Part shown: positions 311 through 46,747 of the stretch, piece by piece
Layout of the letters: the number at the start of each line of letters is the position of its first letter
Numbering within the stretch: position 1 is the stretch's first letter
Origin: an uncultured Planctomycetia bacterium
Lineage (GTDB): Bacteria > Omnitrophota > Gorgyraeia > 2-02-FULL-51-18
Assembly: GCA_964374005.1 (NCBI GenBank)
Contig: CAYJXB010000001.1
Location: 1 to 58,378, forward strand
Reading direction: 5' to 3'
Length of the DNA stretch: 58,378 bases
The notes under the pieces: model-generated
Databases searched by the model: none
What the model was told of the DNA's origin: nothing
What the model saw: only the letters and a program-made list of their open reading frames with translations
Position numbers and translations under genes: made by a program

Positions 311-856
311 TTATTTGACGGAACCGATGCGCTTGGGAGGCCACCATCTAAAAATGGCCTTGCCCAAAATATTTTTTTTCGGAATAAAACCCCAAAACCG
401 GCTGTCTGTGGAATTGGCGCTATTGTCACCCAGCACATAATAAGAGCCCTTGGGAACATGGATTTTCTCATTGGGTCCGCCAAACGGGTCATGATTGTAA
501 TAGTAGAAATTCCCGAAAGTTTCCGGATCGTTCAGGACTTTTCCGTTCACGTAAATCTTTCCGTCCTTGATCTCGACGACCTCGTCCTCAAGCGCGACCA
601 TTCTTTTGATGAAGTCTTTTTTGAGGTCGACCGGGTACTTGAACACGACGATGTCCCCGCGCTCGGGTGGTTTGAACCGGTAGATGAATTTATTCACGAA
701 CAACTTGTCCCCTTCCGCCAAGGTCGGCCGCATTGACCCGGAGGGGATCTTAAACGCTTGGACCACATACGTTCTGATAATCAGCGTGAGGATGAGTGCG
801 ATAAAAATCGACTGCCCCCACTCTTTGACCTCCCGTACTAAAGTTTCTTTTTTCAC
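311..856 (-). CDS. lepB: signal peptidase I
   Basis: S26 motifs PSGSMRPTL and GDNSANSTDSR. GTG start 856..854 lies at the edge of element F2a-1. Confidence 0.93.
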   Translation of the reverse strand: MKKETLVREVKEWGQSIFIALILTLIIRTYVVQAFKIPSGSMRPTLAEGDKLFVNKFIYRFKPPERGDIVVFKYPVDLKKDFIKRMVALEDEVVEIKDGKIYVNGKVLNDPETFGNFYYYNHDPFGGPNEKIHVPKGSYYVLGDNSANSTDSRFWGFIPKKNILGKAIFRWWPPKRIGSVK

Positions 857-942
857 CCCGTTAGAAATCTCCTTAATTTGCGATGCATTATATTATTATT
901 TCATGAACCCCGTTGAAATTATAATTTCTAACGGGGTGAATC
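856..942. repeat. F2a-1: palindromic element between lepA stop and lepB start
   Basis: CCCCGTTAGAAAT (from 856) and ATTTCTAACGGGG (924-936), plus an internal same-sense copy AACCCCGTTGAAAT (905-919). TCA at 853-855 and 943-945. Confidence 0.85.
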
Positions 943-2742
943 TCATTCCGCCTTGAGAGCCGCCAAGAAGGCCTCTTGGGGGATCTCCACTTTCCCGAAT
1001 TGTTTCATTCTTTTTTTTCCTTCTTTCTGTTTTTCCCAGAGCTTGCGCTTGCGCGTGATGTCGCCGCCGTAGCATTTACCGGTCACATTTTTCCCCAACG
1101 GTTTCACGGATTCCCGCGCGATGACTTTCCCACCGATGGCCGCTTGGATCACGACTTCGAATAGTTGCCTTGGAATCAGCTCTTTTAATTTCTCACACAG
1201 TGCCCGGCCCTTGGCTTGAGCTTTTTCGCGATGGACGACCGAACTGAAAGAATCACAGATTTCAGCGTTGATCAAGATGTCCAGCTTCACGAGATCGCTT
1301 TCCCGATGGCCTTTTAGCTCGTAATCCAGCGAGCCATACCCTTTTGAAATTGACTTAACGCGGTCGTAAAAGTCAACAATGATCTCGGATAACGGGAAAT
1401 CATAAATCACTTTGACCCGCTCCTCACTGATGTACTCCGTGGCCTTGTAGACGCCGCGGCGTTGTTCACAGAGTTCGAGGACCGCCCCCAGGCTGCTCGA
1501 GGGGGTCATGATCGTGGCGTCCACGAACGGCTCCAAGATCGCGGCGATCTGGCTGGGATTGGGCATCTTGGACGGGTTCTCGATCTCAACGAGCTCACCG
1601 CTGTTTTTCTTTATTTGATAGACGACGCTTGGCGTCGTGATCACAAGATTCAAATCGTATTCGCGCTCAAGCCGTTCCTGGACGATTTCCATGTGGAGCA
1701 ACCCCAGAAAACCGCAGCGGAAACCGAACCCCGTCGAGGCCGAACTCTCCACCTCATAAACAAAAGAGGCGTCACTTAATTGCAGCTTTTCCATCGCATC
1801 TTTAAGCGCCTGGAAGTCTTTCGAATTCACCGGGTAAATTCCCGCAAACACCAGCGGGCGGATCTTTTTATAACCAGGCAATGAAAGTGCGCAAGGGTTT
1901 TCCGCGTCCGTGATCGTGTCGCCGTTTTCCACCTCTTTTGCGGAGCGGATGTTGCAGGTAATATAACCGACCTCCCCGCAGGATAAAGAAGCGCATTCGA
2001 CCGGTTTCGGGCGTAAAACGCCTACTTCCATGACGTCAAACGTGAGGCCGCTTCCCATCATTTTAATCTTCATGCCGCGCCGCAAAACCCCGTTAAAAAG
2101 ACGCACATAGACGATCACGCCTTTGTAGATGTCAAAGTTCGAGTCAAAGATGAGGGCTTGAAGGGGTTTTTTCGGATCCCCCTTCGGCGGCGGGATATTT
2201 GTCACGATTCGTTCAAGGAGTTCGCCGATACCAATGCCCATTTTAGCGGAGGCCAAGATGATTTCTTTTTCTTCGATCCCGAGGATGTGGTGGATCTGTT
2301 TTTTGACCTTGTCGGGTTCGGCCGTGCCCAAATCAATTTTATTGACGACCGGAATGATCTCGAGGTTGTGTTCCATCGCCAGATACAGGTTCGCGACGGT
2401 CTGCGCCTCCACCCCCTGGCTGGCGTCCACGAGGAGAACCGCCCCTTCGCAGGCGCGCAAGCTCTTCGACACCTCATAAGTAAAATCCACGTGTCCCGGC
2501 GTATCGATGAGGTTTAAAGTAAATTCCTCCCCCGTTTTTCGCCGGTAGAGTATCTTGACAGCGGAGGCCTTGATCGTGATGCCGCGCTCTTGCTCCAGGT
2601 CCATGTCATCCAGCATTTGGTTATGAAAAGTGCGGCTGTCGATGGCGCCGACGAATTCCAGGATCCGGTCCGCGAGGGTGGATTTCCCATGATCGATATG
2701 AGCGATGATTGAGAAGTTTCTTATGTGCGATTGTTGATTCAT
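943..2742 (-). CDS. lepA: translation elongation factor 4 (LepA)
   Basis: 599 aa. GTPase N-terminus [32 protein letters not shown]. LepA-type C-terminus. Sits next to lepB. Confidence 0.97.
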
Positions 2743-2750
2743 TTCTTCGG

Positions 2751-4193
2751 TCAGCTTAAGGGGGCCGAAGGCGCAAGACCAAAGGCGAGCTCTTTGCCTC
2801 CTTTGACCAACGCCTCAGCGAGTGCGAGCGAAGTGGCCTCGGAGTAGATTCTTAAAACGGGCTCGGTTCCGGAAAGCCGGAAAAGAAGCCAACTGTCGTC
2901 TTCCAATATGAATTTCATCCCATCCTGGTTTTTGATGTCCTTTATGTTCTGTTTCTCCAGTTCCCCTGGAGGGTTCTGGGACAATGTTTGGAAAAGTTTT
3001 GATTTGAGCTCATTCGGATAATTGACATCGCTGCGGACATAATAAAGTTTCCCAAACTCTTTTTCCACCCCACTCAAAATTTCTTCAAAACTTTCCCCGC
3101 GCATCGCCATCATCTCCATCACCAAAAGCCCGGAGAGAAGTCCGTCCCGTTCGTACAGGTAATCCTGGAAACCGATGCCGCCCGATTCCTCCCCGCCGAT
3201 CAACACGTTCTCGCGGCGCATGATTTCGCAGATGTATTTGAATCCTATCGGAGTCTCATGGATCTTGAGACCCAATTTGCGCGCGACCTTATAGATCAAG
3301 ACCGTGTTGGAGATCGTCGTGACAACGCTCCCTTTTCTTTTCAGGTCCTCCACAAAATGAATCATGATGAGCGACAGGAGAATTCCCGGAGAAATAAATT
3401 CCCCGCCCGGGCGAATGGCTCCGATACGGTCCGCGTCCCCATCGGTCACAATGCCCAGATCAAAGCCGCCCTTCTTCATCAGCTCAGTGGATCGCGCGAT
3501 GTTTTTAGGAATAGGCTCGGGGTTGATTCCCTCAAACGTGATATCCCGCTCGCTGCGGATCGTCGTCACTTTGATCTTTCCGCCTGAAAGTATCTCTTCG
3601 ATGTGTTTGGCGCCTGTGCCGTGCATGGAATCTACTAAAATATGATAAGGCGCCTGTTTGATCCGGTCCAATCGCAGGTATTTTTTTAAAAACGCGATGT
3701 ATTTTTCACTTAAGTTCACGATCTTGAGCTCAGAAGAGGAGGATTTTTTTTGAACGGGGTTCTTACCGATCAGCTTTTCAATTCCATCGGTGATGTTCTT
3801 ATCGGCGGAACCCCCGAAATCCGTTTTAATCTTGATCCCGTTGTAATCCGGAGAATTATGGCTTGCCGTCACGACAATTCCCGAGTCACATTTTTCATGA
3901 ACGATCGTGAAACTGACCGCCGGCGTCGGGCAAGCTTGATCCGCGAGAATGACTTGAAGACCGTTCGCGATCAGGATCTCTGAAATAGCCTTCGCGAAGT
4001 TTTCCGAATTTTTTCGGGTGTCATAACCGACGACCACTTTTGGCGAGCGTCTCTCGGGCCGCTTTTTAAATTCTTGATGGAGGTAATCACTAAACGCCTG
4101 GGCGACAAGCTCCACATTCGGGAATGTGAACTCCTTATTCATGATCGCCCGCCAACCGTCGGTGCCGAATTTGATAGTCGTTACCCCTGACAT
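2751..4193 (-). CDS. phosphoglucomutase/phosphomannomutase family protein
   Basis: FGTDGWRA N-terminus, active-site loop [11 protein letters not shown], metal site DGDADR. Confidence 0.9.
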
Positions 4194-4840
4194 CGCAAAT
4201 CCTCTATGGCTTTTCTGACATCCGCCTTGCCAAAAATAGCCGTTCCCGCCACCAAAATATTGGCGCCCGCCTTTACCGCCTCTTTTGAGGTTTCTTTATT
4301 GATACCGCCGTCCACTTCGATGTCCCTGTCAAAGCGGCTCCGAAGTTCCTGGATTTTCGTCAAGACTTCCGGCATAAACGCCTGCCCTCCAAAACCTGGA
4401 TTGACCGTCATCAACAGCACCAGGTCCACGTCTTTTAAGTGATCCTCAATCCGGGTCAAAGGCGTTGCCGGTTTTAGCGAGACTCCGCAGGTAATGGCGT
4501 GAGAATGAATGATTTCGATGCATTCTCCGAGGTTTCCATGGCAGGCTTCGGCATGAATCGTGATATGATCGGCCCCGGCTTGGGCAAAACTTTCAATGCT
4601 GCGTTCGGGCCTTTCAATCATGAGATGGACGTCCAGAGGGAGCTTGGTGATACGACGAATGGCTTTGACGATGAAGGACCCCACCGTGAGGTTGGGGACA
4701 AAATGGCCGTCCATCACGTCAATGTGAAGCCAATCGCAGCCCGCCTTTTCCACTGTCTCAATTTCGGACGCCAAATGCGTAAAATCGGCGGCTAACAAGG
4801 ACGGCGCAATTTTGATTGGTCGATTCATGCTTGAGATCAA
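4181..4840 (-). CDS. rpe: ribulose-phosphate 3-epimerase
   Basis: IAPSLLAADF, HIDVMDGHFVPN, MTVNPGFGGQ. Confidence 0.93.
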   Translation of the reverse strand: MISSMNRPIKIAPSLLAADFTHLASEIETVEKAGCDWLHIDVMDGHFVPNLTVGSFIVKAIRRITKLPLDVHLMIERPERSIESFAQAGADHITIHAEACHGNLGECIEIIHSHAITCGVSLKPATPLTRIEDHLKDVDLVLLMTVNPGFGGQAFMPEVLTKIQELRSRFDRDIEVDGGINKETSKEAVKAGANILVAGTAIFGKADVRKAIEDLRCQG

Positions 4841-5553
4841 CCCTCCCCTTCTTTTACTAAGTGCTTACCGCAGACCTGATGATATTCAAGAGAGGCTGAA
4901 TGATAAACAAAAAAAGCGATCAAAATAAGCATCCAATGCCTCTTCCATAACCCTATGAGAACAAATAGTATAGCAAAAATATATCCTAAATAAACAGAAA
5001 TTCGCGTCGCTTGGACAAAATTCATCCGGTGCGCCAATAAGGATCTTAAGATTCTTCCCCCATCCATGGGAAAAGCGGGCGCAAGGTTGAAGATCCCGAG
5101 GATGATATTTGCCCAAAAAAGATTGGTGAACGTTTGAGGCCATGACTCTAGGGAAGGGGCGAAGAGATTTTCTTTTCCGAATAGAAAATAGAACGGGACC
5201 AGAAGCATTAGCGCCAACGCGAAATTGAATAGCGGCCCTACAACGGAAATGGCTAATTCCAGCCGGGGATTTCGGGGAATACGCTGCATGTTCGCCACGC
5301 CCCCAATCGCGTAAAGCGTAATATCGGCGACGTGGATTCCGTAGCTCTTCGCTTTTAAGCTATGGGAAAATTCATGAGCCAGCACGCAGGCAAATACCAT
5401 GAATACCAAGGTGACGGCCCGTAGTCCGGTCCAAGGCCCGTAGGCATGGGTGTACAGAAAACCAATGGCGATCGGGAGAATAAAAAAGCTAAAATGGATT
5501 TTAACGTCGATTCCGAAAAGCCGGAACAGTCGAAATGCGGCTTTTGGATTCAA
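4837..5553 (-). CDS. M50 family (site-2 protease-like) membrane metalloprotease
   Basis: HEFSHSL zinc motif inside a polytopic hydrophobic protein. Second motif region FNLAPAFPMDGG. Confidence 0.8.
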   Translation of the reverse strand: MNPKAAFRLFRLFGIDVKIHFSFFILPIAIGFLYTHAYGPWTGLRAVTLVFMVFACVLAHEFSHSLKAKSYGIHVADITLYAIGGVANMQRIPRNPRLELAISVVGPLFNFALALMLLVPFYFLFGKENLFAPSLESWPQTFTNLFWANIILGIFNLAPAFPMDGGRILRSLLAHRMNFVQATRISVYLGYIFAILFVLIGLWKRHWMLILIAFFVYHSASLEYHQVCGKHLVKEGEG

Positions 5554-6851
5554 TGGGAAAACGTGAGGATCTTACGGAGATCATTTTCCAGTTCGTTGAT
5601 CTTCGGGCCGATCGCGGCCAGGTGCAAGGATTCGGACTTGAATATCATCTTCGCGACGCGCCGGAGATCCGGCGCCGTTATTTTGCTCACTTGTTGAATG
5701 ATTTCTTGAAGGGTTTTGCACCGGTTGATTGAGACGACGTTCTCCCCCACCCAAAGCATGCGGTTCATGCTGCTCTCGAGGCCGAGCTCGAGCTGCCCGA
5801 CGTAAAATTCCTTTGTTCTTTCCAGCTCTTTCGGCGGCACAAGCTCTTGGCAGGTTTTCGCCAGTTCCGTCAAGATGACGCGGAGCGCTTCTTTCACTTT
5901 ATTATTATCAACACCGGCGGAGACGATAAAGGCGCCTGTTTCGTGATACTGCTTTTCGGAAGAGCCGATTTCATAGGCGAGCCCTCGTTCCTCCCTCACC
6001 TCATTAAAAAGTCGTGAAGACATGTTGCCTCCAAGAAGAATGTTGAGCACATCCAAAACATACTGATCGGGGTGATTTTTTTTAAAAGCGGAAATGCCCA
6101 GCGCCAGATGTGTTTGCTCGACGGCTTTTGAATAGAGCCGGAGGCTGGGTTCGTTTTTCGGACGGCTGAATAAATCCACCGTTTTCGTCGTTTGCGGCCC
6201 TCTCGAAAGAAACCGAGATTGGGTGGCTTGCAAAAGCTGGCCTTGTGTCATGTCCCCGGCGGCCACGACGCTGATCCTATTCGGCGCATAAAAACGATTT
6301 CTAAACTTCGCCATGTCTTCGCGGGTAAGATTTCCAACGCTTTCGAGCGTCCCTGCGATGGGTCTCCCCAGCGCGTGCTTCGGCCATAAAATTTCGGATA
6401 AAAGCTCTTCCACGTATTGGGACGGCTGATCTTGGGTCATTTTTATTTCTTCCATCACGACCGTCCGCTCTTTCCGAATATCGTCTTCATTCAAAGAAGC
6501 GTCCAGCACCATGTCCGAGAGCACGTCAAAGACCTCTTCGAAATGGCGTCGGGTGGTTTTCGCCAAAAAGCAGGTGTACTCTTCTCCGGTGAATGCGTTG
6601 AGACTGCCTCCGACGCCCTCCACCGCTTCCTTGATTTGTTTGGCGGTACGTCTGGAAGTTCCTTTGAATACCAAATGCTCTAAAAAATGAGAAATTCCGC
6701 TGATCCGCGGCTCCTCGTCCCTACCCCCTACCTGAACCCATAGGCCGATCGAAATCGAAGCTCTCCCCTTCATGGGCGCGGCGACAACGCGTACGCCATT
6801 GGCGAGCTTGACAATCTCAGGGTTCATCGGATGATTTCCTTTTTGATTCAA
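5550..6851 (-). CDS. M16 family zinc peptidase (pitrilysin-like)
   Basis: Inverted zinc motif HFLEHLVFKGT (HxxEH). 433 aa. The start may be the internal ATG at 6827. Confidence 0.85.
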   Translation of the reverse strand: MNQKGNHPMNPEIVKLANGVRVVAAPMKGRASISIGLWVQVGGRDEEPRISGISHFLEHLVFKGTSRRTAKQIKEAVEGVGGSLNAFTGEEYTCFLAKTTRRHFEEVFDVLSDMVLDASLNEDDIRKERTVVMEEIKMTQDQPSQYVEELLSEILWPKHALGRPIAGTLESVGNLTREDMAKFRNRFYAPNRISVVAAGDMTQGQLLQATQSRFLSRGPQTTKTVDLFSRPKNEPSLRLYSKAVEQTHLALGISAFKKNHPDQYVLDVLNILLGGNMSSRLFNEVREERGLAYEIGSSEKQYHETGAFIVSAGVDNNKVKEALRVILTELAKTCQELVPPKELERTKEFYVGQLELGLESSMNRMLWVGENVVSINRCKTLQEIIQQVSKITAPDLRRVAKMIFKSESLHLAAIGPKINELENDLRKILTFSH

Positions 6852-7245
6852 GATAATTTTGAAGTAAAATTGTCGCCGCGAGACGGTCGCCCTTTTCTTT
6901 CTGTTTTTTTCTCGAAAGACCCTCTTGGATCATTAAACGCCCCGCTTGACGGCTCGTCAAACGCTCGTCCCATGTCTTCACCGGTAAACGTAATTTTTCC
7001 TCCAGGGCCGGGACGAGTTGCAGTATTTCCTGCGCTTTCGGCCCCATGCTTCCGTTCATGTTGATCGGAAGGCCGATCACGATCTCTTGGATTTTATGTT
7101 CAGCGCAAATCTGAGACAAATCGCCTAACAGCTGTTCCCTGTTTTGAACTCGGAGCGTCTCGAGCCCCTGGGCTGTCAGCCCGAGAAGGTCTGAAACCGC
7201 CAGGCCTATTCTTTTTTCGCCAAAATCAATTCCGAGGATTCGCAT
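6817..7245 (-). CDS. ruvX: Holliday junction resolvase-like / pre-16S rRNA nuclease RuvX (YqgF)
   Basis: MRILGIDFGEKRIGLAVSD N-terminus. 142 aa. Confidence 0.9.
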   Translation of the reverse strand: MRILGIDFGEKRIGLAVSDLLGLTAQGLETLRVQNREQLLGDLSQICAEHKIQEIVIGLPINMNGSMGPKAQEILQLVPALEEKLRLPVKTWDERLTSRQAGRLMIQEGLSRKKQKEKGDRLAATILLQNYLESKRKSSDEP

Positions 7246-7249
7246 CGGA

Positions 7250-8302
7250 TTAATAGGGGACAGCGCCCTTTTTTTTCGAAAAAGGGCGCTGTCCCCTTTT
7301 TAAAATCAAGGCCGCTTCTTCCGAACGGCTTCGGTCGCAGATCAAAGTTCCCTGGCTTGTTTGGACCACCACGAGCTCCTGCGCTCCAAGAACCACTAAG
7401 GGTCTCTGATGGTAATTGACAAGAAGCGAGCGTTTTGTTTCTCGGTGGAAGGTTTGACCTTCAACAAAATTTTGGTTTCTGTCTTTGGAGGCCCTCTCCA
7501 AGAACATGCCCCAGCTCCCCATGTCGCACCAATCCATGCTCGTTTTCATCACAACGATATTATCCGCTTTCTCCAAGAGCGCGTAATCAATGGAGAGGTT
7601 GGGGAGATTTTTATAGCTATGGGCCGACCTACGGACCTCAAACCGGCGATAGACCCTCGACGCGAATTTTTGCATCGTGTCCAGAAAAACGCCGATTCTC
7701 CAAGTAAAAATTCCGGCATTCCACAAAAAATTACCCTGCCGAAGATAACGAGCCGCCAGACCAAAACCTGGTTTTTCCTTGAAACGCTTGACTTGATAGC
7801 CAAGCCCGGCGCTTTTGATTTTCCGGCCGCACTCAATGTATCCCAAGCCCATCGCCGGGAAAGTCGGCCGGATGCCGATCACGACGAGCGATCGGCTTTT
7901 TTGAGCAACCTCAATCGCGGCGCGCATCGTCTTTTTGAAAAGAACCTCATTTTTAATCAGATGATCCGCTGGAAAAAATGAAACGACTTCTTCCTTGCCG
8001 CACGCGTCGCTTAAGGCAAGACAGGAAAAGAGGATCGCGGAGGCGGTGTTGTTGCGGAAAGGTTCGACCAGGATATTGGAGGGCGCAAGGCGCGGAAGCT
8101 CCGCTTTGATAAGAGGGACATGCTCCTTGGTTGTGATCACATGGATTTTTTTTTGATCATAAACTTTCAAGAGCCGCCGGTAAGTTTTTTGCAAAAGAGA
8201 CGCCTTGCCGTCAAACTGGATACGGTATTTTGGAAATTGGCCGTGCGTGAGCGGCCAGAATCTCTCGCCTTGGCCGCCGGCCATGATGATTGCCTGTGCC
8301 AT
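7250..8302 (-). CDS. mannose-1-phosphate guanylyltransferase (nucleotidyltransferase family)
   Basis: IIMAGGQGERFWPLT sugar-nucleotidyltransferase N-terminus. 350 aa. Confidence 0.75.
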   Translation of the reverse strand: MAQAIIMAGGQGERFWPLTHGQFPKYRIQFDGKASLLQKTYRRLLKVYDQKKIHVITTKEHVPLIKAELPRLAPSNILVEPFRNNTASAILFSCLALSDACGKEEVVSFFPADHLIKNEVLFKKTMRAAIEVAQKSRSLVVIGIRPTFPAMGLGYIECGRKIKSAGLGYQVKRFKEKPGFGLAARYLRQGNFLWNAGIFTWRIGVFLDTMQKFASRVYRRFEVRRSAHSYKNLPNLSIDYALLEKADNIVVMKTSMDWCDMGSWGMFLERASKDRNQNFVEGQTFHRETKRSLLVNYHQRPLVVLGAQELVVVQTSQGTLICDRSRSEEAALILKRGQRPFSKKKGAVPY

Positions 8303-8303
8303 C

Positions 8304-9110
8304 TTATACCTTTACCTTTTTTCCTAACGCCTTTGCGAACGGGCGGATAAACTCTTTGGAAAATTTCGTCGCGCTGATCCCTGGGTGAGCCATGAGGGCG
8401 CGAACAACCACGCTTCCGATGATCACTCCGTCGGCCATTTGAGAAAGGGTCTTTGCCTGCGCCGGAGTGGAAACGCCGAAGCCCACGCAGACCGGAAGTC
8501 TCGTCTGACGGCGAATGGCCTTAAGATTACGGCGAACGTCCGACGCGAGGGTTTTCCTCGCCCCGGTGACGCCGGTCAACGAGACATAATAAACAAACCC
8601 ACGCGTGGCGCGGGTCACCTTCTTTTGTCTGGCGCGATCGCTTGTCGGGGCCAAAAGATAGATTAAATTGATTTTGTGGCATTCGAGGACAGGACTGATT
8701 TCCAGCCCCTCTTCCGGAGGCAGATCAGAAACGATCACGCCGTCCACTCCGGCGCGCGCTGCGTCTTTCGCAAAACGCTGAATCCCATAATGAAAAATCG
8801 GATTGAAATAGCTCATCAAAAGAATGGGGGCCTGGCTCTTTTTCCTTACGCGCGCCACTAATTTTATGATTTTCGCAAGGGTCGTTCCGTTTTTGAGCGC
8901 TCGTTGGGAAGATGCCTGAATGACGGGCCCGTCGGCAATCGGGTCGGAGAACGGGACACCCAATTCAACCAGATCCACGCCGTTTTTCTCAAAGGCAAGG
9001 ATCAGCGCCTCAGTTTTTTTAAGGCCGGGGTCACCCGCCGTAATAAAAACGACGAGTGCTTTTTTCTTTTCTCTTTTCAGAAACTCAAATTTTTTTTGAA
9101 TCCGGTTCAC
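8304..9110 (-). CDS. trpA: tryptophan synthase alpha chain
   Basis: FITAGDP, ELGVPFSDPIADGP. I place the start at GTG 9110..9108 (VNRIQKKFEFLK...), 7 nt after AGGAGG. The ORF-track extension to 9140 (MVGWKKGGGG) lies inside repeat F1-a. Confidence 0.93.
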   Translation of the reverse strand: MNRIQKKFEFLKREKKKALVVFITAGDPGLKKTEALILAFEKNGVDLVELGVPFSDPIADGPVIQASSQRALKNGTTLAKIIKLVARVRKKSQAPILLMSYFNPIFHYGIQRFAKDAARAGVDGVIVSDLPPEEGLEISPVLECHKINLIYLLAPTSDRARQKKVTRATRGFVYYVSLTGVTGARKTLASDVRRNLKAIRRQTRLPVCVGFGVSTPAQAKTLSQMADGVIIGSVVVRALMAHPGISATKFSKEFIRPFAKALGKKVKV

Positions 9111-24578: not shown

Positions 24579-25062
24579 GGATCAACCCTTGCAGAATCAG
24601 GTTCACCAATGCCCCGGCCGCTAAATCATCCCATACGATACTCAAAGGATTTGCATTCTTTTGAATCCGGCTGATCGGCCACGGCTTTAAGGTATCCAGC
24701 AAACGAAATAAAATAAAAGCGACGAGAAAGACCGCCGGTGTTTTAGGCAGCCACAAGACACTGAGCATCATTCCGCAGACCTCATCCAAGACAAAAGGAG
24801 TCGGATCTCTGGAGGCTACGAGGCCATCCACTGCCTCGGCCGACGTGCCGCGAGAGGAAACTCGCGGCTTTGAAGAAAACACGATCGTCGCGGATTTGCA
24901 TATCGCAAAACCCACCACGCAAAGCACCAGGGTTAGATAAGGAATAGCTCCGTAAAAATACCACGCGATCAGAAGCCCGGCGAGACTCCCGAAAGTGCCG
25001 GGGGCGAAAGGCAGATAACCCACATAAAAAAAAGAAGCAGCCGCCTTGACCCAGGCGCTCAT
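24556..25062 (-). CDS. pgpA: phosphatidylglycerophosphatase A
   Basis: GYLPFAPGTFGSL, FVLDEV.G, FRLLDTLKPWPI, WDDLAAG. ATG 25062..25060 at the edge of F2b-1. Confidence 0.88.
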   Translation of the reverse strand: MSAWVKAAASFFYVGYLPFAPGTFGSLAGLLIAWYFYGAIPYLTLVLCVVGFAICKSATIVFSSKPRVSSRGTSAEAVDGLVASRDPTPFVLDEVCGMMLSVLWLPKTPAVFLVAFILFRLLDTLKPWPISRIQKNANPLSIVWDDLAAGALVNLILQGLILTLGVPV

Positions 25063-25167
25063 CCCGTTAGACTCCTTACCAACAATGCGTTACTATTACT
25101 TATGCGATTCGCGGTTCGCTTGAAAACTGTTGCGCCACCGATATTGAAATTTAGGAGTCTAACGGGA
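25062..25167. repeat. F2b-1: 106-bp palindromic element between pgsA stop and pgpA start
   Basis: TCCCGTTAGACTCCTTACCAAC ... TTGAAATTTAGGAGTCTAACGGGA. CTCA at 25058-25061 and 25168-25171. Confidence 0.88.
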
Positions 25168-25168
25168 C

Positions 25169-25729
25169 TCATTCAAGCGTCTCTAGATTTTTTATCACGT
25201 AGCGAATGCCGCTCCAAAGAGTGATCGCCACAATAAAAAATAGGCTGAAATAAATAAGCCGGGTGGCGCTCGGAGTCCATTCGGGCCGCCAGACACTGGT
25301 TTCCTTCACGGCGAGAAACAGCAATACCCCCACGATCGCGGCAAACTGTAATACCGTTTTTTGCTTACCGCTTCCGCGCGCGGACTGCGAGTCCCCCAAA
25401 GAAGGCGGGATAAGCCGCCAGCTCGTGATCAGAAAATCTCTCGTGATGATCAACACCACCATCCAGGCGGGCATGATGCCCATTTGCACAAATGCCAGGA
25501 ACGCGGAGAGCGTCAGAATTTTGTCCGCAATCGGATCCATGAGTTGCCCGAAGCGGCTGACCTGGCCCCTTTCGCGGGCGAACTTGCCGTCCCAGTAATC
25601 CGTAAAAACGGCCAGGATGAACGTCGCAAGCGCCAGCGCCTTAGACAGCGCCCCCTGAACGGAAAGAAGGAGTATGAAAACGACGGTGAGAAGAATGCGA
25701 TAAAACGTTAAACGATTGGGAAGCGTCAC
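25169..25729 (-). CDS. pgsA: CDP-diacylglycerol--glycerol-3-phosphate 3-phosphatidyltransferase
   Basis: DYWDGKFARERGQVSRFGQLMDPIADK motif. GTG start 25729..25727 at the edge of F1-d. Confidence 0.9.
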   Translation of the reverse strand: MTLPNRLTFYRILLTVVFILLLSVQGALSKALALATFILAVFTDYWDGKFARERGQVSRFGQLMDPIADKILTLSAFLAFVQMGIMPAWMVVLIITRDFLITSWRLIPPSLGDSQSARGSGKQKTVLQFAAIVGVLLFLAVKETSVWRPEWTPSATRLIYFSLFFIVAITLWSGIRYVIKNLETLE

Positions 25730-27971: not shown

Positions 27972-30109
27972 TTTTTGGGCCGCTCCGCTAAAATCTCTCT
28001 CGGCTTGGCCCCGCGGTAAGGCCCTACCACGCCATCTTCTTCCATCATATCGATCAGCCGCGCGGCCCGCGTGTACCCCAGCCCCAATCGCCGCTGCACC
28101 ATTGAAACGGACGCTTGGCCAGTCTCCAGCACGACGCGCTTGGCTTCGTCATAAATCTCGTCGCGTTTAAAATCTCCGAAGGCCTGTTTTTTTTCCTGAG
28201 AGTGAATGACCGCCTCGTAATACGCCGGTTTTCTTTGAGACTTGATAAAATCGGTCACCCGCTCTATCTCTTTTTCCTGCACCCAGGCGCCTTGCGCGCG
28301 AGTCAATTTTGATTTTCGTGGGTCCATGAAAAGCAGATCTCCCCTTCCGAGCAGTTTATCGGCGCCGTTTTCATCAAGGATGGTCCTCGAATCCACCTTC
28401 GAGGCGACCTGAAACGCGATCCGCGCCGGGAAATTGGCTTTAATCACGCCCGTGATCACGTCCACCGAAGGCCTTTGAGTCGCTAGAATCATGTGGATCC
28501 CCACGGCCCTCGCTAGCTGCGCGATCCGCGTGATTGCCGTCTCCACTTCCTGCTGGGAAGAAAGGATAAGATCCGCAAGCTCATCAATCACGATGACGAT
28601 GTAGGGCAGCTTGAGTAATTGCGGATCAATCTCTTTATTCTGGACTTTTTCATTAAATATCGTGATATTTTTAGCGCTCACCTCCGACAATACCTTGTAG
28701 CGACGCTCCATTTCCGCCACGAGCCACGCGAGCGCCCCTGGCGCCTTCGCCTTGTCCGTGATCACGGGGGCGATCAGATGCGGCAGGTCATTATAAAAAT
28801 GAAGCTCGACCATTTTCGGGTCAATCATCAAAAATCTTACCTCCTCGGGGCTCGACTTGTACAAAATGCTCACGATAATGCTGTTGATGCAGACGCTCTT
28901 TCCCGTATTGGTCGCGCCCGCGATCAAGAGATGCGGCATATCGCTAAGATTATAGACGATCGGAGCGCCCGCCGTATCTTTACCGATCACCATCGCAATT
29001 TTCGACGGCTCGTTCTGAAAATCGCTCGACGCGAGCACTTCCCTGAGAGAAACGATCGCAGCAGACCCGTTTGGCACCTCAATGCCTACGCGCGATTTTC
29101 CGGGAATCGGGGCGACAATGCGGACGCTCGTTGCCCTCATCGCGAGCGCAATGTCGTTCTCGAGCGACGTGATGCGTTGAACTTTCACTCCCGCCGCCGG
29201 CTGTAATTCATAGCGTGTGATCGTGGGGCCTTGTTCCACTTCCACCACTTTAGCTTCGATATTAAAATCCCGAAGCGTGTCTTCCAGGACCCGGGAGCTA
29301 GTTTCTAAATCGGCTCTGGCCTTATTTTGGTCGACCGCGGGAGACGGCAGTAGAAGATCCAGGTCCGGCAATCGATAACTGCCGGCTGGCTCTTGGGACA
29401 TCATGGGCCGCTCTTTCGGCTTGGGCGCCGGCCAAAGGCCGGCTGGCCTCGCGGCCGGACCCCGGGTCTCGGGTCTTGTAGTTTCCGGTTTTTGCGCTAT
29501 CGTTTCTTTTATTTCAGGAAACTTGGGATGAATAATGGTTGTGCTCACCTTTTTTTTCCTGAAATCAAACAACGACGGCCAAGAAATTTTAAACCGTTTG
29601 AACAAACTCCCCGTCATTTGCAGAATCAAAAGCTCGGTTGCCAGAAGAATGGATAAAAGAAATAACGAAAGCGCCACAAAAACGCCCGCGCGTCCGAATA
29701 GATGGGATAAAAACAGGGAGCTAAAATAGCCCAGGACGCCGCCGGCCTGAAATCGCCCGATTTTCGTGCCTTCATTCAGCAGCGAAAAAAGCGCGCAGGA
29801 TGAGGCAAAAAATATGACGGTCGCGAAAAGCTTGAGCCATAGTTTTTGGCTTTTTTGGCCGAACCACTGGGCTAGCGCCCAAAATAAAAAAAGCGGAACT
29901 AGAAAATAAGAAGTCGTGCCAAAGAGAAGAATGAGAACCCAGGCCGTATAAGCGCCGGCGATCCCGACAAAATTGCGAGCGGGTGAATTCACGGAGGAAA
30001 CTTCGAAGGCAATATCGTTAGGCGTGTAAGACAAGAGCGCGAGTAACGTGAGGATGGACGTGATAAACCAGAAAAAGGCCAACACTTCGCTTCGTTTTTG
30101 TTCGTTCAC
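27968..30109 (-). CDS. ftsK: DNA translocase FtsK
   Basis: N-terminal TM helices, Walker A GATNTGKS, C-terminal gamma wHTH (MVQRRLGLGYTRAARLID). GTG start at the edge of F2b-2. Confidence 0.95.
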   Translation of the reverse strand: MNEQKRSEVLAFFWFITSILTLLALLSYTPNDIAFEVSSVNSPARNFVGIAGAYTAWVLILLFGTTSYFLVPLFLFWALAQWFGQKSQKLWLKLFATVIFFASSCALFSLLNEGTKIGRFQAGGVLGYFSSLFLSHLFGRAGVFVALSLFLLSILLATELLILQMTGSLFKRFKISWPSLFDFRKKKVSTTIIHPKFPEIKETIAQKPETTRPETRGPAARPAGLWPAPKPKERPMMSQEPAGSYRLPDLDLLLPSPAVDQNKARADLETSSRVLEDTLRDFNIEAKVVEVEQGPTITRYELQPAAGVKVQRITSLENDIALAMRATSVRIVAPIPGKSRVGIEVPNGSAAIVSLREVLASSDFQNEPSKIAMVIGKDTAGAPIVYNLSDMPHLLIAGATNTGKSVCINSIIVSILYKSSPEEVRFLMIDPKMVELHFYNDLPHLIAPVITDKAKAPGALAWLVAEMERRYKVLSEVSAKNITIFNEKVQNKEIDPQLLKLPYIVIVIDELADLILSSQQEVETAITRIAQLARAVGIHMILATQRPSVDVITGVIKANFPARIAFQVASKVDSRTILDENGADKLLGRGDLLFMDPRKSKLTRAQGAWVQEKEIERVTDFIKSQRKPAYYEAVIHSQEKKQAFGDFKRDEIYDEAKRVVLETGQASVSMVQRRLGLGYTRAARLIDMMEEDGVVGPYRGAKPREILAERPKK

Positions 30110-30214
30110 CCCGTTAGACTCCTTACCAACATTGAGTTACCCTTATCGACACGATTCGTTGCGAGCCCAGAAACTTTTGCGTTGCCAATCTTGAAATTTA
30201 GGAGTCTAACGGGG
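30109..30214. repeat. F2b-2: 106-bp palindromic element between dut stop and ftsK start
   Basis: CCCCGTTAGACTCCTTACCAAC ... TTGAAATTTAGGAGTCTAACGGGG. TTCA at 30105-30108 and 30215-30218. Its ends match F2b-1 while the centre has diverged. Confidence 0.88.
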
Positions 30215-30215
30215 T

Positions 30216-30668
30216 TCATCTAGCCCCCGTGTGCCCAAAACCGCCGCTGGCTCTCGCCGTATGGGTCAAGTTATCCACCTCTTCAATTTCCGCCCGGATG
30301 ACTTCGTGAATAATCATCTGAGCCAGACGATCGCCGCGCCTGATGGGATATGGGTTCTTGCCAAGATTGGTCAATATGAGCGACACGACACCACGATAAT
30401 CGCTGTCGATCGTTCCGGGAGTATTGACAAGCGTGATGCCGTGCTTAAGCGCCAGGCCGCTGCGAGGACGAACTTCCGCCTCATAACCGGTCGGAATACT
30501 GATGGAAATGCCCGTGGGAACGAGCTTGATTTCGCCGGGCTGGAGCACGATCTCTCCTTCCACATCGGCTACCAGGTCCATGCCTGACGCCCCTTCGGAC
30601 ATATAAGCGGGAAGCGGAAGGTCGTTAGTCCCAGGGCTTCTTTTTATTAAAAGTTTTACTGTTCTCAC
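30216..30668 (-). CDS. dut: dUTP diphosphatase
   Basis: [25 protein letters not shown]. The GTG start lies 44 nt inside the pnp 3' end. Confidence 0.93.
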
Positions 30669-39736: not shown

Positions 39737-39814
39737 TGGTCGGGATGCAGGGATTTGAACCCTGGACCTCCTGGTCCCGAACCAGGCGCGCTAGCCAAAC
39801 TGCGCTACATCCCG
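39737..39814 (-). tRNA. tRNA-Pro (anticodon CGG), CCA encoded
   Basis: Minus-strand read CGGGATG TA GCGC AGTTTGGCTA GCGC G CCTGG TTCGGGA CCAGG AGGTC CAGGG TTCAAAT CCCTG CATCCCG A CCA. This gives a complete cloverleaf with 7/4/5/5-bp stems and anticodon loop TTCGGGA. Confidence 0.95.
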
Positions 39815-42470: not shown

Positions 42471-43322
42471 TTACACCGTGATTAAGAAATTATCGATGAG
42501 CCTGACGTTTCCAAAGAAAACCGCGAGCGCTATCAGGATTTTCTGGCGGTTTTTCAATTCTACCACAGGTTCGAGCGTCTGGGCATCGACAATTTCAACA
42601 TAGTCGATTTTGAGATGCCGCGCGTTTTTTAGCACCTCTTTGACTCTCTTTTTGATCTTAGACGCATCGGCCACGCCGCTCTTGACTAAATCCGAGCCTC
42701 GTTGCAGCGCCCGGTACAAAAAAGGCGCCTCTTGCCGCTCGGGGGCCGACAACAAGACATTGCGTGAACTCATCGCGAGCCCATTGGGCTCTCGGACGAT
42801 GGGCGCCATTCTCACGCGGACCGGAAAATCCAGGTCCTTCACCATTTGCTCAATGAGTCGAAACTGCTGATAGTCCTTCTGGCCCAGATAAATCGTATCG
42901 GGCATGACAATATTTAAAAGTTTCAAAACGACAGTCGCCACGCCGACGAAATGGGACGGGCGTGAAACGCCGCACAACCCTTGAGCGAAGTTTTTGACCG
43001 AGACCGACGTTTGAAAATCTTCCGGATAAAACTCCCTCACACGCGGTGTAAAAAGAAAATTAATCTTTTCCTTTCGTAAAAGTTCGGTGTCTTTTCCCAG
43101 ATCTCTTGGGTATCGCCAAAAATCATCAAGGGGACCGAATTGCAATGGGTTCACAAAGATGCTGACCACGGTCGCCTTGTTCTCCTTCTTTGCCTGACGG
43201 ACAAGCGAGAGATGGCCTTCGTGAAGATACCCCATCGTCGGCACAAAACCAATCGCGCGGCGGCGTTTCCTTAAAGCCTGAAGCGCGTTTCTAAGCTCCT
43301 GAGAATGGCGTATAACTCTCAC
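42471..43322 (-). CDS. panC: pantoate--beta-alanine ligase
   Basis: [19 protein letters not shown] start 43322..43320 at the edge of F1-e. Confidence 0.94.
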
Positions 43323-43431
43323 CCCACCACCTTCTTTGTTTCACCGCGACGCCCAATGACACCAAGAGCGGTGAAAGGATTCGCCGCAGGCGAATCCAAG
43401 GATTCTTCGAATCTAAAAGAAGGTGGTGGGG
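43322..43431. repeat. F1-e: palindromic element between folK and panC
   Basis: Arms CCCCACCACCTTCTTT and AAAGAAGGTGGTGGGG (16/16). TCA at 43319-43321 and 43432-43434. Shares GATTCTTCGAATCTAAAAG with F1-a. Confidence 0.9.
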
Positions 43432-43898
43432 TCATGGCAAAGTTCTTCGTAAAGCTGCTTGATGGTTTTCTTAAGCTTTGGATGGACAAGGTCCGGCGCG
43501 ATCTCGAAGAGAGGTTGCAACACAAACTTCCTCTGTGCCAGCCGGGGATGCGGGATGCTTAAGGTTTTTCCCTCAAGGATCACCACATCCCCGTAAAATA
43601 AAATATCCAAATCCATGCTCCGCGGCGTGTTAGGCGGCGATTTTAAACGGCCAAGCCGGCGCTCGATCATCTTGAGTTGCGAAAGTAGTTCCAGCGGAAG
43701 AATGTCCGTGTCGATCTTGATCGCGCCGTTTAGGAATTTCCCTTGAAGCCCCCCCTCTACTTCCGGATCAGTTTCAATGAGGGCGGAGACGGCCTGAACC
43801 TGGATTTCCTTATTTTCTTTTAAAAGTGCCAAGGCTTTGTCGATGTTGGCTTGCCGGTCGCCAAGGTTGGATCCGATGCCTAGATAGACCAACGGCAT
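43413..43898 (-). CDS. folK: 2-amino-4-hydroxy-6-hydroxymethyldihydropteridine diphosphokinase
   Basis: VYLGIGSNLGDR, PRSMDLDIL, IPHPRL. The last 6 codons (DPTTFF) are read from the F1-e arm. Confidence 0.9.
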   Translation of the reverse strand: MPLVYLGIGSNLGDRQANIDKALALLKENKEIQVQAVSALIETDPEVEGGLQGKFLNGAIKIDTDILPLELLSQLKMIERRLGRLKSPPNTPRSMDLDILFYGDVVILEGKTLSIPHPRLAQRKFVLQPLFEIAPDLVHPKLKKTIKQLYEELCHDPTTFF

Positions 43899-45071: not shown

Positions 45072-45079
45072 CGCGTGTC

Positions 45080-45805
45080 TTATCTCTCTTTTTTTAAGAC
45101 GTCGGAAATGTTGTAGAAACCTGGTTTCTTGCCGGCTAAAAAAAGGGCTGCGTCGAGCGCGCCATTCGCAAATGCATCCCGAGACTCTGCATGATGAGAA
45201 AGCGTGAACGTCTCTCCGGGGCCACTAAAGATCACGGTATGATCGCCAACGATCTCATCTTGGCGAATGACGTGAACCTCGTTTTCCATTTCTGCGGCCC
45301 TGGCTGGATTCCAACCCTTTGCTTTTGCGATTGCCTGCACAATTTTTTTGGCTGTTCCGCTCGGTCTGTCCTTTTTATGTATATGATGGGCTTCGGCGAT
45401 CTTAATGCTATAGGACTTACCAAATTTTGTGGCGGCTAAGGCTGCCAGCTCGATAAGGGAATTGGCCCCACGACTCATGTTTGGTGACAAAAGGACTGGG
45501 ATTTTCTCCGAGGCTTTCTTTACTTCCGATTCGATTTTTTCACCAAGGCCTGTGGTTGCAATCACAATGGCTGTCTTGGCTTCGAGACACGCTTTGAGAG
45601 CTTCTCGGGTCCCTTCGGGCAGCGAAAAATCAATTAAAACATTAGCCCCTTTTAAAGCTTCGGCCGATGGTTTATCATTTTGATCAAACACGGCGACGAT
45701 CTTAAAATCCTTTGAATCGCGCGCCAATGAAAGGATCCGCGTCCCCATGCGCCCAAGCGCACCGTTCACCGCGATTTTTACCCCGTTAGAAATCTTCTTA
45801 TTCAT
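45080..45805 (-). CDS. dapB: 4-hydroxy-tetrahydrodipicolinate reductase
   Basis: KIAVNGALGRMG. I place the start at ATG 45805..45803, 7 nt after AGGAGA. The ORF-track GTG at 45829 lacks a comparable SD. Confidence 0.9.
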   Translation of the reverse strand: MNKKISNGVKIAVNGALGRMGTRILSLARDSKDFKIVAVFDQNDKPSAEALKGANVLIDFSLPEGTREALKACLEAKTAIVIATTGLGEKIESEVKKASEKIPVLLSPNMSRGANSLIELAALAATKFGKSYSIKIAEAHHIHKKDRPSGTAKKIVQAIAKAKGWNPARAAEMENEVHVIRQDEIVGDHTVIFSGPGETFTLSHHAESRDAFANGALDAALFLAGKKPGFYNISDVLKKER

Positions 45806-45862
45806 ACCATTATCTCCTGTTGTCACCACCCACCGTCAAAGCATGATTTCTAACGGGGTGAA
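45781..45862. repeat. F2a-2: palindromic element between dapA stop and the ancestral dapB start, now partly coding
   Basis: CCCCGTTAGAAATC (45781-45794) and GATTTCTAACGGGGTGAA (45845-45862). Flanks are TTA (45778-45780, degenerate) and TCA (45863-45865). Confidence 0.8.
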
Positions 45863-46747
45863 TCATGACCTTCCCTTGACTTTCAAGCCGTAAGTTTTCA
45901 TGGCCTGCGTCAAGATTTTTTGGTTTCGGGGCTGCATCGGCGAAAGCGGCAGACGAAGCTCCTCGCGGCAAAGCCCCATCAAACCCATGGCCTTCTTAAT
46001 CGGGATCGGATTTGTTTCAATAAATAGGGCGCGGCACAAAGGAAACATTTTATAATGAAGCTCCCGGGCTCTCTGGAAGCTCCCGGCAAAATAAGCGTCC
46101 ACCATTTCCGAAACCGCCTGTGGCACGATGTTGGCGATCACCGAAATGACCCCTTTGGCGCCCAAGGCCATTAAAGGTAAGGTCAGGGAATCATCGCCGC
46201 TTAAGACCGTGATATCGCATAAGGATAAAATGTGAGAGGTCTGGTCCATGCTGCCGGTCGCTTCTTTGATCCCCACGATATTTTTTATTTTTGACAATCG
46301 CGCGACCGTCTCAGGAATCAGCGTCACGCCCGTGCGACCGGGGACATTGTAAAGAATGATGGGAATATTCACTTTTCGGGCAACTTTTTCATAATGCCGG
46401 TAGAGCCCTTCCTGCGTCGGACGGTTGTAATACGGCGTGACCATCAACGCGCCGTCGGCGCCTGCTTTTTTCGCGAACTTCGTCAGCGAAATAGCCTCTT
46501 CCGTACTATTGGAACCCGTGCCCGCTATCACCGGGACTTCGTGGCTGGCCGCCTCGACCACCACCTTCATCACGCGTTCGTGTTCTTTGTGCGACAACGT
46601 GGGGCTCTCGCCTGTCGTGCCGGCCGGCACGATGCCGTCGGTGCCCGATCGAATATGAAACCGCACAAGCTTCGCCAAGGCCTTTTCATCCACTTTTCCG
46701 TTCCTAAACGGCGTCACAATGGCCACGATCGAACCATGAAATTTCAC
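45863..46747 (-). CDS. dapA: 4-hydroxy-tetrahydrodipicolinate synthase
   Basis: IVAIVTPF, GTTGES, IVGIKEATGS (Schiff-base Lys). GTG start at the edge of F1-f. Confidence 0.95.
   Translation of the reverse strand: MKFHGSIVAIVTPFRNGKVDEKALAKLVRFHIRSGTDGIVPAGTTGESPTLSHKEHERVMKVVVEAASHEVPVIAGTGSNSTEEAISLTKFAKKAGADGALMVTPYYNRPTQEGLYRHYEKVARKVNIPIILYNVPGRTGVTLIPETVARLSKIKNIVGIKEATGSMDQTSHILSLCDITVLSGDDSLTLPLMALGAKGVISVIANIVPQAVSEMVDAYFAGSFQRARELHYKMFPLCRALFIETNPIPIKKAMGLMGLCREELRLPLSPMQPRNQKILTQAMKTYGLKVKGRS

Follow-up and report, generated by a model that had tools for sequence, protein, structure and literature searches.

Four gene junctions in a 58,378-nt stretch of DNA from an uncultured Planctomycetia bacterium, placed by GTDB in the Omnitrophota (CAYJXB010000001.1 of assembly GCA_964374005.1; the whole stretch is called the window here), each hold a copy of a small hairpin-forming repeat that I will refer to as F2, and this article discusses what these copies are and how the genes around them could live with them. 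The junctions are lepA/lepB, pgsA/pgpA, dut/ftsK and dapA/dapB (gene names from NCBIfam), the flanking genes all lie on the minus strand, and, read in gene direction, each copy follows the stop of the upstream gene and precedes the start of the downstream one. The unit has the form Y-CCCGTTAGA…TCTAACGGG-R. An earlier reading of the sequence alone had proposed four inverted-repeat elements at just these junctions, and this is borne out: the 9-mer CCCGTTAGA has exactly eight matches in the window, all as inverted pairs (four pairs), against 0.24 expected, and none of 100 dinucleotide-preserving shuffles reaches eight. I think it likely that the F2 copies are very small non-autonomous DNA transposons, akin to MITEs (miniature transposable elements with inverted repeats), which sit at start codons and carry a short open reading frame (ORF), the relay ORF, that hands ribosomes on to the downstream gene.

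The inverted arms are exact over 9 nt in all four window copies and extend to 14-18 nt, and RNA folding gives every copy a predicted terminal stem of 13-18 bp (z-scores -2.5 to -5.0) that begins 1-2 nt past the upstream stop and finishes at the base preceding the start codon. The two copies labelled F2b are as the sequence-only reading described them, each 106 nt long with about 25 nt common at either end, differing middles (76% identity overall) and plus-strand flanks of CTCA/CTCA (F2b-1) and TTCA/TTCA (F2b-2). The interior of F2a-1 includes the palindromic TTCATGAA and also a third, internal arm, the counterpart of which in F2a-2 is degenerate. Coordinates are collected in Table 1.

Table 1. 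Positions of the F2 and F1 features in the window (SD, Shine-Dalgarno; gene-strand sequence unless stated otherwise)
Feature	Position	Strand	Description
F2 arm pairs, CCCGTTAGA	857/935, 25063/25166, 30110/30213, 45782/45857		exact 9-nt inverted repeats
F2b-1	25062..25167	-	106 nt, T-CCCGTTAGA…TCTAACGGG-A, pgsA/pgpA; predicted 16-bp terminal stem, z = -3.1
F2b-1, upstream duplication copy	25168..25171	-	TGAG; contains pgsA stop TGA (25171-25169) and TG of the retained old pgpA ATG (25172-25170)
F2b-1, downstream duplication copy	25058..25061	-	TGAG; joins element base 25062 (A) in the new pgpA ATG; its TGA stops the relay ORF
F2b-1, SD-like AAGGAG	25072..25077	-	in 3' arm, 9 nt before new ATG; pairs with CUCCU of 5' arm
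F2b-1, relay ORF	25059..25172	-	37 codons and stop, MSPVRLL…LVRSLTG-stop; from old ATG to TGA overlapping new ATG
F2b-2	30109..30214	-	106 nt, C-CCCGTTAGA…TCTAACGGG-G, dut/ftsK; z = -3.2
F2b-2, flanks	30215-30218 and 30105-30108	-	TGAA/TGAA
F2b-2, relay ORF	30106..30219	-	37 codons, MNPVRLL…LVRSLTG-stop; old ATG overlaps dut stop, TGA overlaps new ftsK GTG
F2a-1, core	856..936	-	C-CCCGTTAGAAAT…ATTTCTAACGGG-G, inside lepB start codon; 18-bp stem, z = -5.0; new lepB GTG is base 856 (G) plus TG
F2a-1, target 4-mer	852..855	-	TGAA; TG of lepB start and AA of codon 2; single copy in empty sites
F2a-1, AAGGAG	869..874	-	12 nt before new lepB GTG
F2a-1, third (internal) arm	908..920	-	CCCCGTTGAAATT on plus strand; 29-nt local hairpin with arm 923-936
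F2a-1, extra upstream 4-mer	937..940	-	TTCA; no copy of target TGAA
Bases upstream of F2a-1	941-942		orphaned A of old lepB ATG and native 1-nt spacer
lepA stop	943-945		native
F2a-2, core	45781..45858	-	dapA/dapB; old insertion common to locus L126 (88% DapB identity)
F2a-2, extra upstream 4-mer	45859..45862	-	TTCA
dapB start recruited from F2a-2	45803..45805	-	internal ATG; AGGAG at 45814-45818, 8 nt upstream
F1 copies	9100-9262, 12745-12907, 16256-16440, 25721-25848, 43312-43435, 46737-46866, 52646-52717		about 7 junctions

Empty sites and insertion footprints

The F2 copies are insertions, since the pgsA/pgpA, lepA/lepB and dapA/dapB junctions are uninterrupted in relatives (L-numbers denote loci from other genomes throughout); the relatives retrieved cover these three of the four junctions. 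At pgsA/pgpA the site is empty in L121, L122 and L124 (PgpA 64-69% identical, gene order kept), where the sequence reads …GCGTT GAATGA ACAATTGGG…, and the window has GAATGAG[TCCCGTTAGA…TCTAACGGGA TGAG]CGCCTGGG, with the insertion in single square brackets; the filled and the empty site differ by exactly F2b-1 and a single 4-nt repeat, with the pgpA ATG in alignment. In L121 and L124 (compared with window positions 24556-25729) pgsA extends 17 nt into pgpA (…EALNEQLG-stop) and in the window a 1-nt difference places the pgsA stop at the TGA of ATGA (…ETLE-stop), so the type of overlap at this junction changed around the time of the insertion.

The lepA/lepB junction is empty in L128-L132, of which L132 belongs to GCA_975752505.1, with LepB identities of 83-94%, and reads GGAATGA-C-ATGAAAAAAGAAAC or GGAGTGA-G-ATGAAAAAAGAAAT, in short GGAATGA-C/G-ATGAAAAAAGAA with a 1-nt spacer, while the window has GGAATGA-G-A[TTCAC CCCG…CGGG G]TGAAAAAAGAAAC. 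Because relatives this close are all empty, F2a-1 must be a young insertion, and its landing point was within the lepB ATG itself (A/TGAA, the slash marking the point of entry). The comparison also corrects several details of the sequence-only reading, which had let F2a-1 span 856-942 between TCA/TCA repeats: the insertion measures 85 nt (852-936, for which 856-940 is an equivalent reading) and the second 'TCA' is the native lepA stop. Excision was moreover supposed to restore ATGA overlaps, yet the relatives show TGA-N-ATG at lepB, and at dapB the native start is ATG GTT AAA.

The dapA/dapB junctions were compared codon by codon and by eye. In relatives with 86-91% identity the protein begins as M(AM)VKIAVNG straight after the dapA stop, as in the empty site of L127 (TAA-G-ATGGCC-ATG-GTT-AAA-ATA), and in the window F2a-2 has parted the native dapB ATG from codon 2, so that DapB gains the N-terminal extension MNKKISNG before its native VKIAVNG through an ATG inside the element. 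Protein P0122 of L126, a locus of GCA_964373885.1 with 88% identity, has the same type of extension, MNDKISNG/VKIAVNG, from the same element, and F2a-2 therefore predates the split between the two lineages. Between them the arms are identical at 34 of 34 positions, the interior is about 73% identical with indels, and the 4-fold degenerate sites of dapB are 63% identical. Gene calls for dapB run into F2a-2 in both genomes, giving 249 aa from a GTG at 45829 in the ORF listing of the window and 250 aa starting MTAEDCGMNDKISNG in L126.

A fourth comparison comes from outside the window, where an orthologous F2b copy lies between maf and greA in L202 and L147, and in L147 only this copy holds a nested 31-nt mini-hairpin: L202 has AATTTAGGAGTC where L147 reads AATTTA[CCCCGTTAGAAACGAAATTTCTAACGGGG TTTA]GGAGTC, a perfect 4-nt TTTA duplication. 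As a side observation, L128 (10.7 kb, 90% LepB identity, gene order conserved against window positions 311-10443) has no F1 or F2 arms, F1 being a second repeat family discussed below, and the matching stretch of the window holds one F2 and a double F1; the relatives with 94% LepB identity (L129, L131) have F1 arms just downstream of lepB. The comparison of L128, L129 and L131 thus indicates that the element load changes quickly between close lineages.

The target sequence is best seen in a census, which was a two-arm scan of one genome per species and brought up at least 120 further loci, so the family does not end with the four window copies and the junction behaviour is found elsewhere too; all census counts in this article are counts among the matches listed. 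My own calculation allows for about 270 chance occurrences of the bare two-arm pattern in a collection of that size, but the matches can be taken as real because their flanks carry the terminal Y…R pair and direct repeats. The Y…R pair is present in 116 of 127 copies, and perfect 4-nt direct repeats are present in 70 of 127 (84 of 127 with at most one mismatch), the perfect ones being TAAA (23), TGAA (23), TCAA (6), TGAG (5), TCCA (4) and TAGA (4), with TGCA also seen. The duplication is usually 4 nt long, of the form T-N-A-R, and lies outside the Y…R pair. The NTCA or TCA duplication of the sequence-only reading needs to be replaced accordingly, and F2a has no TCA duplication at all.

These footprints bear directly on the notion that F2 is not mobile and arose on the spot as a conserved cis-regulatory RNA hairpin, be it a translational operator, an RNase site or a terminator, which I hold to be extremely improbable. 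It is true that the hairpins are stable, more so than shuffled sequence, that the arms of the old copy F2a-2 are conserved, and that viral contigs hold many short CCCGTTAGA…TCTAACGGG hairpins that are simply terminators. However, close relatives with up to 94% protein identity are empty, there are target duplications, and both the interiors and the flanking genes are unrelated to one another; an origin in place is refuted because filled and empty sites exist. The IMG/VR contigs served as a negative control here: they hold a few real F2 copies, and in most of their short matches the stems run on into the flanks and then into T-runs, without the direct repeats or the Y…R pair. At the window copies there is neither a T-run or terminator signal nor a match at the Rfam gathering score (the only Rfam match in the window is a tRNA at 39740-39814), and the candidate identity of an intrinsic terminator or promoter was dropped since no terminator- or promoter-like site coincides with F2 copies. 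A secondary regulatory role of the hairpins may exist besides their origin as insertions.

Rebuilt start codons and a proposed relay reading frame

The feature common to the occupied sites is a hit within or beside the downstream start codon (A/TGAR), and not an ATGA stop/start overlap; a true NTGA overlap is found at 15 of 49 junction copies. The element then rebuilds the start it has interrupted, with a terminal G giving GTG (ftsK, lepB) and a terminal A giving ATG (pgpA), a rule that the sequence-only reading had already stated correctly. Across the census the terminal base plus TG opens an ORF of 70 codons or more in 42 of about 119 testable copies, and 20 of these 42 also supply the upstream stop. 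The same reading had seen SD and anti-SD-like halves paired in the two arms; in F2b the AAGGAG of the 3' arm does pair with the CUCCU of the 5' arm, but this is not a property of the whole family, as 29 of 44 junction copies have no SD and the motif is a subfamily feature. The GGAG of F2b is part of the symmetric terminal repeat, which is why L202, with its copy in the opposite orientation, still shows AGGAGTCTAACGGGG/TG, and the Omnitrophota-type F2b copies of the window accordingly offer an SD 9 nt before the new start in either orientation. SD-like motifs occur in 17 of 49 junction copies as against 4-8 of 91 non-junction copies.

What the sequence-only reading had not observed is the relay ORF. 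A 4-nt duplication at A/TGAR means that the upstream repeat retains the old start codon, and in the frame of this old start the left arm is open (ATG-A(A/G)Y-CCC-GTT-AGA), the other two frames meeting the TGA of the repeat or the TAG of the arm. At the right end the outcome depends on the core length c: if c mod 3 is 2, the frame ends as …CTA ACG GGR TGA with its stop overlapping the new RTG; if it is 1, the frame ends as …TC TAA CGGG RTG with the stop 7 nt upstream of the new start; and if it is 0, the frame is fused to the host gene. About 50 junction copies retain the old start and 27 of them are open throughout, ending at +1 (11), at -7 (14) or in a fusion (2). Of 49 junction copies, 26 have the old-start frame open, where shuffling of the interiors predicts 8.6 (z = 7.2). 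Intact relay ORFs are found in both window F2b copies and also in L147 and the oppositely oriented copy of L202.

It could still be argued that these are ordinary MITEs without any translational adaptation, for which nearly every site other than a start codon is lethal, translation proceeds from an SD within the element or by ordinary reinitiation, and open frames are a by-product, for example of a few open master copies. I consider this unlikely, even though survivorship alone accounts for the placement in the window, openness is slightly elevated on the antisense strand and, compared with shuffles, also in copies away from junctions, and the co-occurrence of SD-like motifs with open relay frames in junction copies could just mark a few successful subfamilies. 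This co-occurrence in turn disposes of the idea that an SD stands in for a closed relay ORF, which was considered and rejected. What speaks against a mere by-product is that stop-free interiors are specific to one frame at junctions, with frames 0, 1 and 2 open in 26, 9 and 11 of 49 copies (Fisher p = 1.2e-4), while non-junction copies have no frame preference (41/41/32 and 37/40/24 of 107 on the two strands); that lengths giving the in-frame phase are depleted at junctions only (7 of 49 versus 39 of 91 non-junction copies, p = 6e-4); and that the open copies have, for the most part, unrelated interiors.

Furthermore, the same phase and open frame recur in F1, a family unrelated to F2 whose arms, CCCCACCACC…GGTGGTGGGG (CCCCACCACCTCC…GGAGGTGGTGGGG), resemble an anti-SD and an extended SD. 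F1 makes a 3-nt TGA duplication, and where its site is empty, in L128, trpB and trpA meet in a true ATGA overlap; in five of five standard copies the distance from old to new start is 2 mod 3, and four of the five have relay ORFs of 40-57 codons that stop on a TGA overlapping the new GTG. That two unrelated families share the relay geometry indicates a general selective rule.

The mechanism that I have in mind would run as follows. In gene-dense genomes copies would survive mainly in intergenic DNA or at the coding-neutral A/TGAR, where the rebuilt-start geometry would make an insertion harmless: the upstream repeat keeps the old start codon, plus the TGA of the upstream gene where the two genes overlapped, and the terminal purine with the TG of the downstream repeat provides a new ATG or GTG before an unchanged codon 2. 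Ribosomes would start at the retained old start in its native upstream context, or arrive by coupling from the upstream gene, and translate the relay ORF (M-N/S-P-V-R-…) through the element, melting the hairpin that would otherwise bury the new start; they would then terminate 0-7 nt from this start, either at the TGA overlapping it or at the TAA of the arm 7 nt upstream, and reinitiate on the downstream gene. For copies that lack the old start other solutions may apply. F2a-1 has none because its upstream TTCA does not copy the target TGAA, and it would use its own AAGGAG, which, as the copy has no relay ORF, is the only ribosome-binding site available to lepB; F2a-2 would use its internal ATG at the price of eight more residues on DapB.

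This geometry resembles that of ordinary NTGA overlaps, in that the right end of F2 (c mod 3 = 2) recreates an RTGA overlap between relay ORF and host gene and the left end keeps the original overlap where there was one; the difference is that a mobile element here manufactures the overlap, on both sides of an inserted ORF. The closest functional precedent is found in integrons, where ORF-11, ORF-17 and ORF-18 of attI1 and short ORFs of attC relieve a stem-loop barrier by termination-reinitiation, the peptide sequence being irrelevant and the stop coming from the core word GT-TAG-AC (PMC8876359); by analogy, ORF-11 and the attC short ORFs are the ones to set beside the F2 relay. Unlike integrons, F2 has no integrase or cassette array, makes target duplications and is dispersed among housekeeping operons.

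Several points weigh against the proposal of transposons with a translated relay and are best taken together. The behaviour of ribosomes, reinitiation included, is deduced from sequence pattern and geometry. In the window there are 971 coding TGAR sites outside elements, 30 intergenic ones and 15 unoccupied ones in start-codon register, and against all of these the placement of F2 is far from random; but start-register sites make up 18 of the 48 tolerated sites (P about 0.15), so start placement does not go beyond survivorship, which is a sufficient explanation and does not require targeting. The core of the sequence-only reading, mobile inverted-repeat elements with short target duplications that lie at junctions and recreate starts, is upheld by the three empty sites, the nested pair and the census; the preference for junctions in the window is no stronger than what purifying selection by itself would leave. 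The relay frame is closed in 23 of 49 junction copies, 20 of which also have no SD-like motif, and these must either have another route or have had their start codons called wrongly. The antisense frame of the same phase is mildly enriched for openness (18/7/10 of 49), which would fit master copies that function in either orientation, so part of the openness may reflect master copies and not selection at each locus. The census copies are not phylogenetically independent. Lastly, about 45% of the copies have no perfect duplication, F2a-type copies have TTCA on one side in place of the target repeat so that a simple staggered-cut model fails for them, and, as no autonomous copy was found, transposition is read from insertion footprints only.

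If the account holds, it would show a way for selfish DNA to endure where about 95% of a genome is coding, as in Omnitrophota and Patescibacteria, namely by occupying the start codon in a way that leaves the insertion invisible to translation. The practical consequences for annotation include starts called inside elements, spurious extensions like MNKKISNG on DapB and contig breaks at copies. A 31-nt mobile unit and an SD within a symmetric repeat could also become compact synthetic parts for translational coupling.

Distribution of F2 and comparison with known elements

The phyla represented in the census are Patescibacteria (the candidate phyla radiation, CPR), Omnitrophota, Planctomycetota, Desulfobacterota/'delta' and Elusimicrobia, with a few Gammaproteobacteria. 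Copies measure 31-120 nt, mini-hairpins of 27-35 nt exist, and only about 10-12 terminal nucleotides are conserved, the interiors being unrelated between taxa; about one quarter of the copies, F2a-1 among them, have a third arm. A metagenome scan with the 14-nt F2b arm was unspecific, with most of its 120 stretches being single chance matches, and yielded real F2 copies only in L144, L146, L147, L202 and L205. One contig classed as viral, IMGVR_UViG_3300038429_000794 (30 kb; L253, L260, L263), carries three long and two short two-arm copies and may be a real phage with elements or a misclassified CPR-like genome fragment.

All-against-all clustering of the 1383 ORFs of the census loci gave no recurrent neighbour protein family, and no transposase or autonomous copy was found in the loci examined. 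Arm pairs 0.4-5 kb apart enclose no transposase either, only TyrRS, MurC, Pgi, ribosomal protein L3 and the like, often with the read-through signature …TSNG/M. As no neighbour family recurs and no transposase was found, F2 is best called non-autonomous and MITE-like, and it has the hallmarks of MITEs: terminal inverted repeats, target duplication (not in F2a-type copies), filled and empty sites, and small dispersed copies devoid of transposase. Prokaryotic MITEs in general (Correia/NEMIS, ERIC, RUP, Nezha and others) are likewise small and transposase-less with terminal inverted repeats and short duplications, and they are present in many copies, lie within or between operon genes and form mRNA hairpins; start codons, stop codons, SD and translational coupling go unmentioned in the 2024 review of these elements (PMC10969869). 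F2 differs from the MITE families checked, none of which matches its Y-CCCGTTAGA repeat with a 4-nt TNAR duplication, and it differs from known MITEs in being spread over several phyla with unrelated interiors, in a 31-nt unit that is still mobile, and in start rebuilding plus a relay ORF. I would class F2 as a kind of MITE with an unusual coexistence with host translation. In the open-access literature I found no description of F2 elements, of start-codon-rebuilding MITEs or of relay ORFs in dispersed repeats, and nothing relevant on the F2 motif, on MITEs in these phyla or on MITEs tied to start or stop codons.

The asymmetric copies deserve closer attention. A constant left-hand TTCA is seen in F2a-1, in F2a-2 and its L126 ortholog, and in L004, L007, L013 and L091, and similarly a constant CTTG or CCTG plus T lies on the side away from the gene start in L025, L092, L094 (4813-4918), L117 and L047, the gene-start side of this subgroup being A/TGAA at the start codon. 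They speak for regarding F2 as REP/REPIN-like or derived from IS200/IS605, with an HUH (Y1) transposase or RAYT inserting beside a tetranucleotide and the repeats being element-borne cleavage tetranucleotides: what was inserted in F2a-type copies is the element with 4 extra nt, lying 5' of T-N-A-A and without duplication, some subfamilies combine a constant 4-mer (TTCA, CTTG) on one side with a target-like 4-mer on the other, and the copies are rich in hairpins, including extra arms and mini-hairpins. I nevertheless find this reading highly improbable. The flanking 4-mers match within a copy and vary between copies (70 of 127), which disfavours it because a tetranucleotide carried by the element should not follow the target; the ends pair with each other over a long range, as true terminal inverted repeats do, and are not two separate subterminal hairpins; no RAYT or TnpA gene lies near any examined copy; and the L147/L202 pair displays a clean 4-nt duplication. 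REP/REPIN elements and IS200/IS605 palindrome-associated transposable elements were rejected as identities for F2, with F2a-type copies leaving some doubt.

A possible lead for the extra 4-mers is the piggyBac transposon, to which the prokaryotic IS1380 family is distantly related and which duplicates TTAA, has ends reading TTAA/CCCTAGAAAGATA and forms hairpins at these ends that take in 4 flanking nucleotides, carried as overhangs (PMC7351741, PMC10140906). F2 resembles piggyBac/IS1380 in its 4-nt T…A duplication and in its ends, (C/T)CCC followed by TAGA(AAGA) or CCC…TAGAAAGA, with L004 reading TNAA/CCCCGTTAGAAAGATA, although TTAA never occurs as a perfect F2 duplication among the matches listed. 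Overhangs of this type could, by analogy, explain the TTCA 4-mers and the TTCATGAA of F2a-1, and it is a matter of speculation whether the TTCA side stems from such chemistry or from quasi-palindrome (template-switch) correction; the resemblance, about 10 nt plus the logic of the footprint, would be a lead and not a sign of membership. A broader and quite tentative extension would see in F2 an undescribed cross-phylum class of minimal (about 31 nt) hairpin transposons that evolved for translational transparency, with the start regenerated, the old start kept and the relay stop placed in the terminal repeat, moved by a transposase whose hairpin chemistry, like that of piggyBac/IS1380, brings 4 flanking nucleotides along (and so explains inherited 4-mers like TTCA), and perhaps acting as portable recombination points that shuffle genes between operons. 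The sharing of a 10-nt terminal repeat across phyla would imply a widespread transposase, whose hairpin chemistry may be unusual, as well as horizontal transfer between groundwater bacteria that have not been cultivated.

Rickettsia palindromic elements (RPEs) are palindromic repeats inserted in frame into coding genes, where they become part of the host protein. The likeness to F2 is that of palindromic mobile repeats tolerated in compact genomes through compatibility with translation, and a few F2 cases, the in-frame copies of L096 and L109 and, in part, F2a-2 with its 8-residue DapB extension, are RPE-like; however, most F2 junction copies avoid the in-frame phase and instead form a short ORF of their own, with its end at the host start, so that the RPE identity was rejected for the family and the start-codon strategy of F2 differs from the in-frame strategy of the Rickettsia elements. 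Other identities that were tried and rejected are MITEs of the IS5/PIF-Harbinger type, which have a 3-bp TNA duplication (that of F2 is 4 nt), and of the IS630/Tc1-mariner type (e.g. Correia), whose TA duplication F2 does not share; the integron attC site, with RYYYAAC (R'') on the 5' side and GTTRRRY (R') on the 3' side of its hairpin, an arm order that is reversed in F2 (F2 has GTTAGAC, a GTTRRR word, in the 5' arm and GTCTAAC, a YYYAAC word, in the 3' arm), and which does not fit copies lying between housekeeping genes; and tRNA-like size classes (76-78 and 92-93 nt), dropped in view of unrelated interiors and terminal stems that are too long.

Some arrangements seen along the way may be recorded here. 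L019 holds F2-type copies (2943-3104 and 6122-6199) in tandem, with nothing but R + 4-mer + Y (GCTCAC) between them. A pair of inverted 92-nt copies in L014 (2167-2258 and 4942-5033), with inverted inner flanks, brackets a 686-aa secreted protein; this type of 92-nt unit also occurs at contig ends in the same metagenome-assembled genome (L008, L077), and for this reason it is probably present in high copy number and breaks the assembly. The asymmetry of the CTTG/CCTG subgroup is like that of the F2a TTCA.

Other repeats in the window

The F1 copy at 9100-9262 is a nested double. A third type of repeat, at 35072-35186, is an imperfect inverted repeat of 53 nt with many AAAACG/GTTTTACG motifs within a 138-nt spacer (35053-35192), and a related arm lies at 54008-54040 (spacer 53908-54030). 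At 54917-54981, finally, there is a 27-nt inverted repeat (CAGAAGTCAGATGACAGAAGTCAGAAA / TTTCTGTCTTCTGTCATCTGTCCTCTG) at the start of a gene that ends at 54971.

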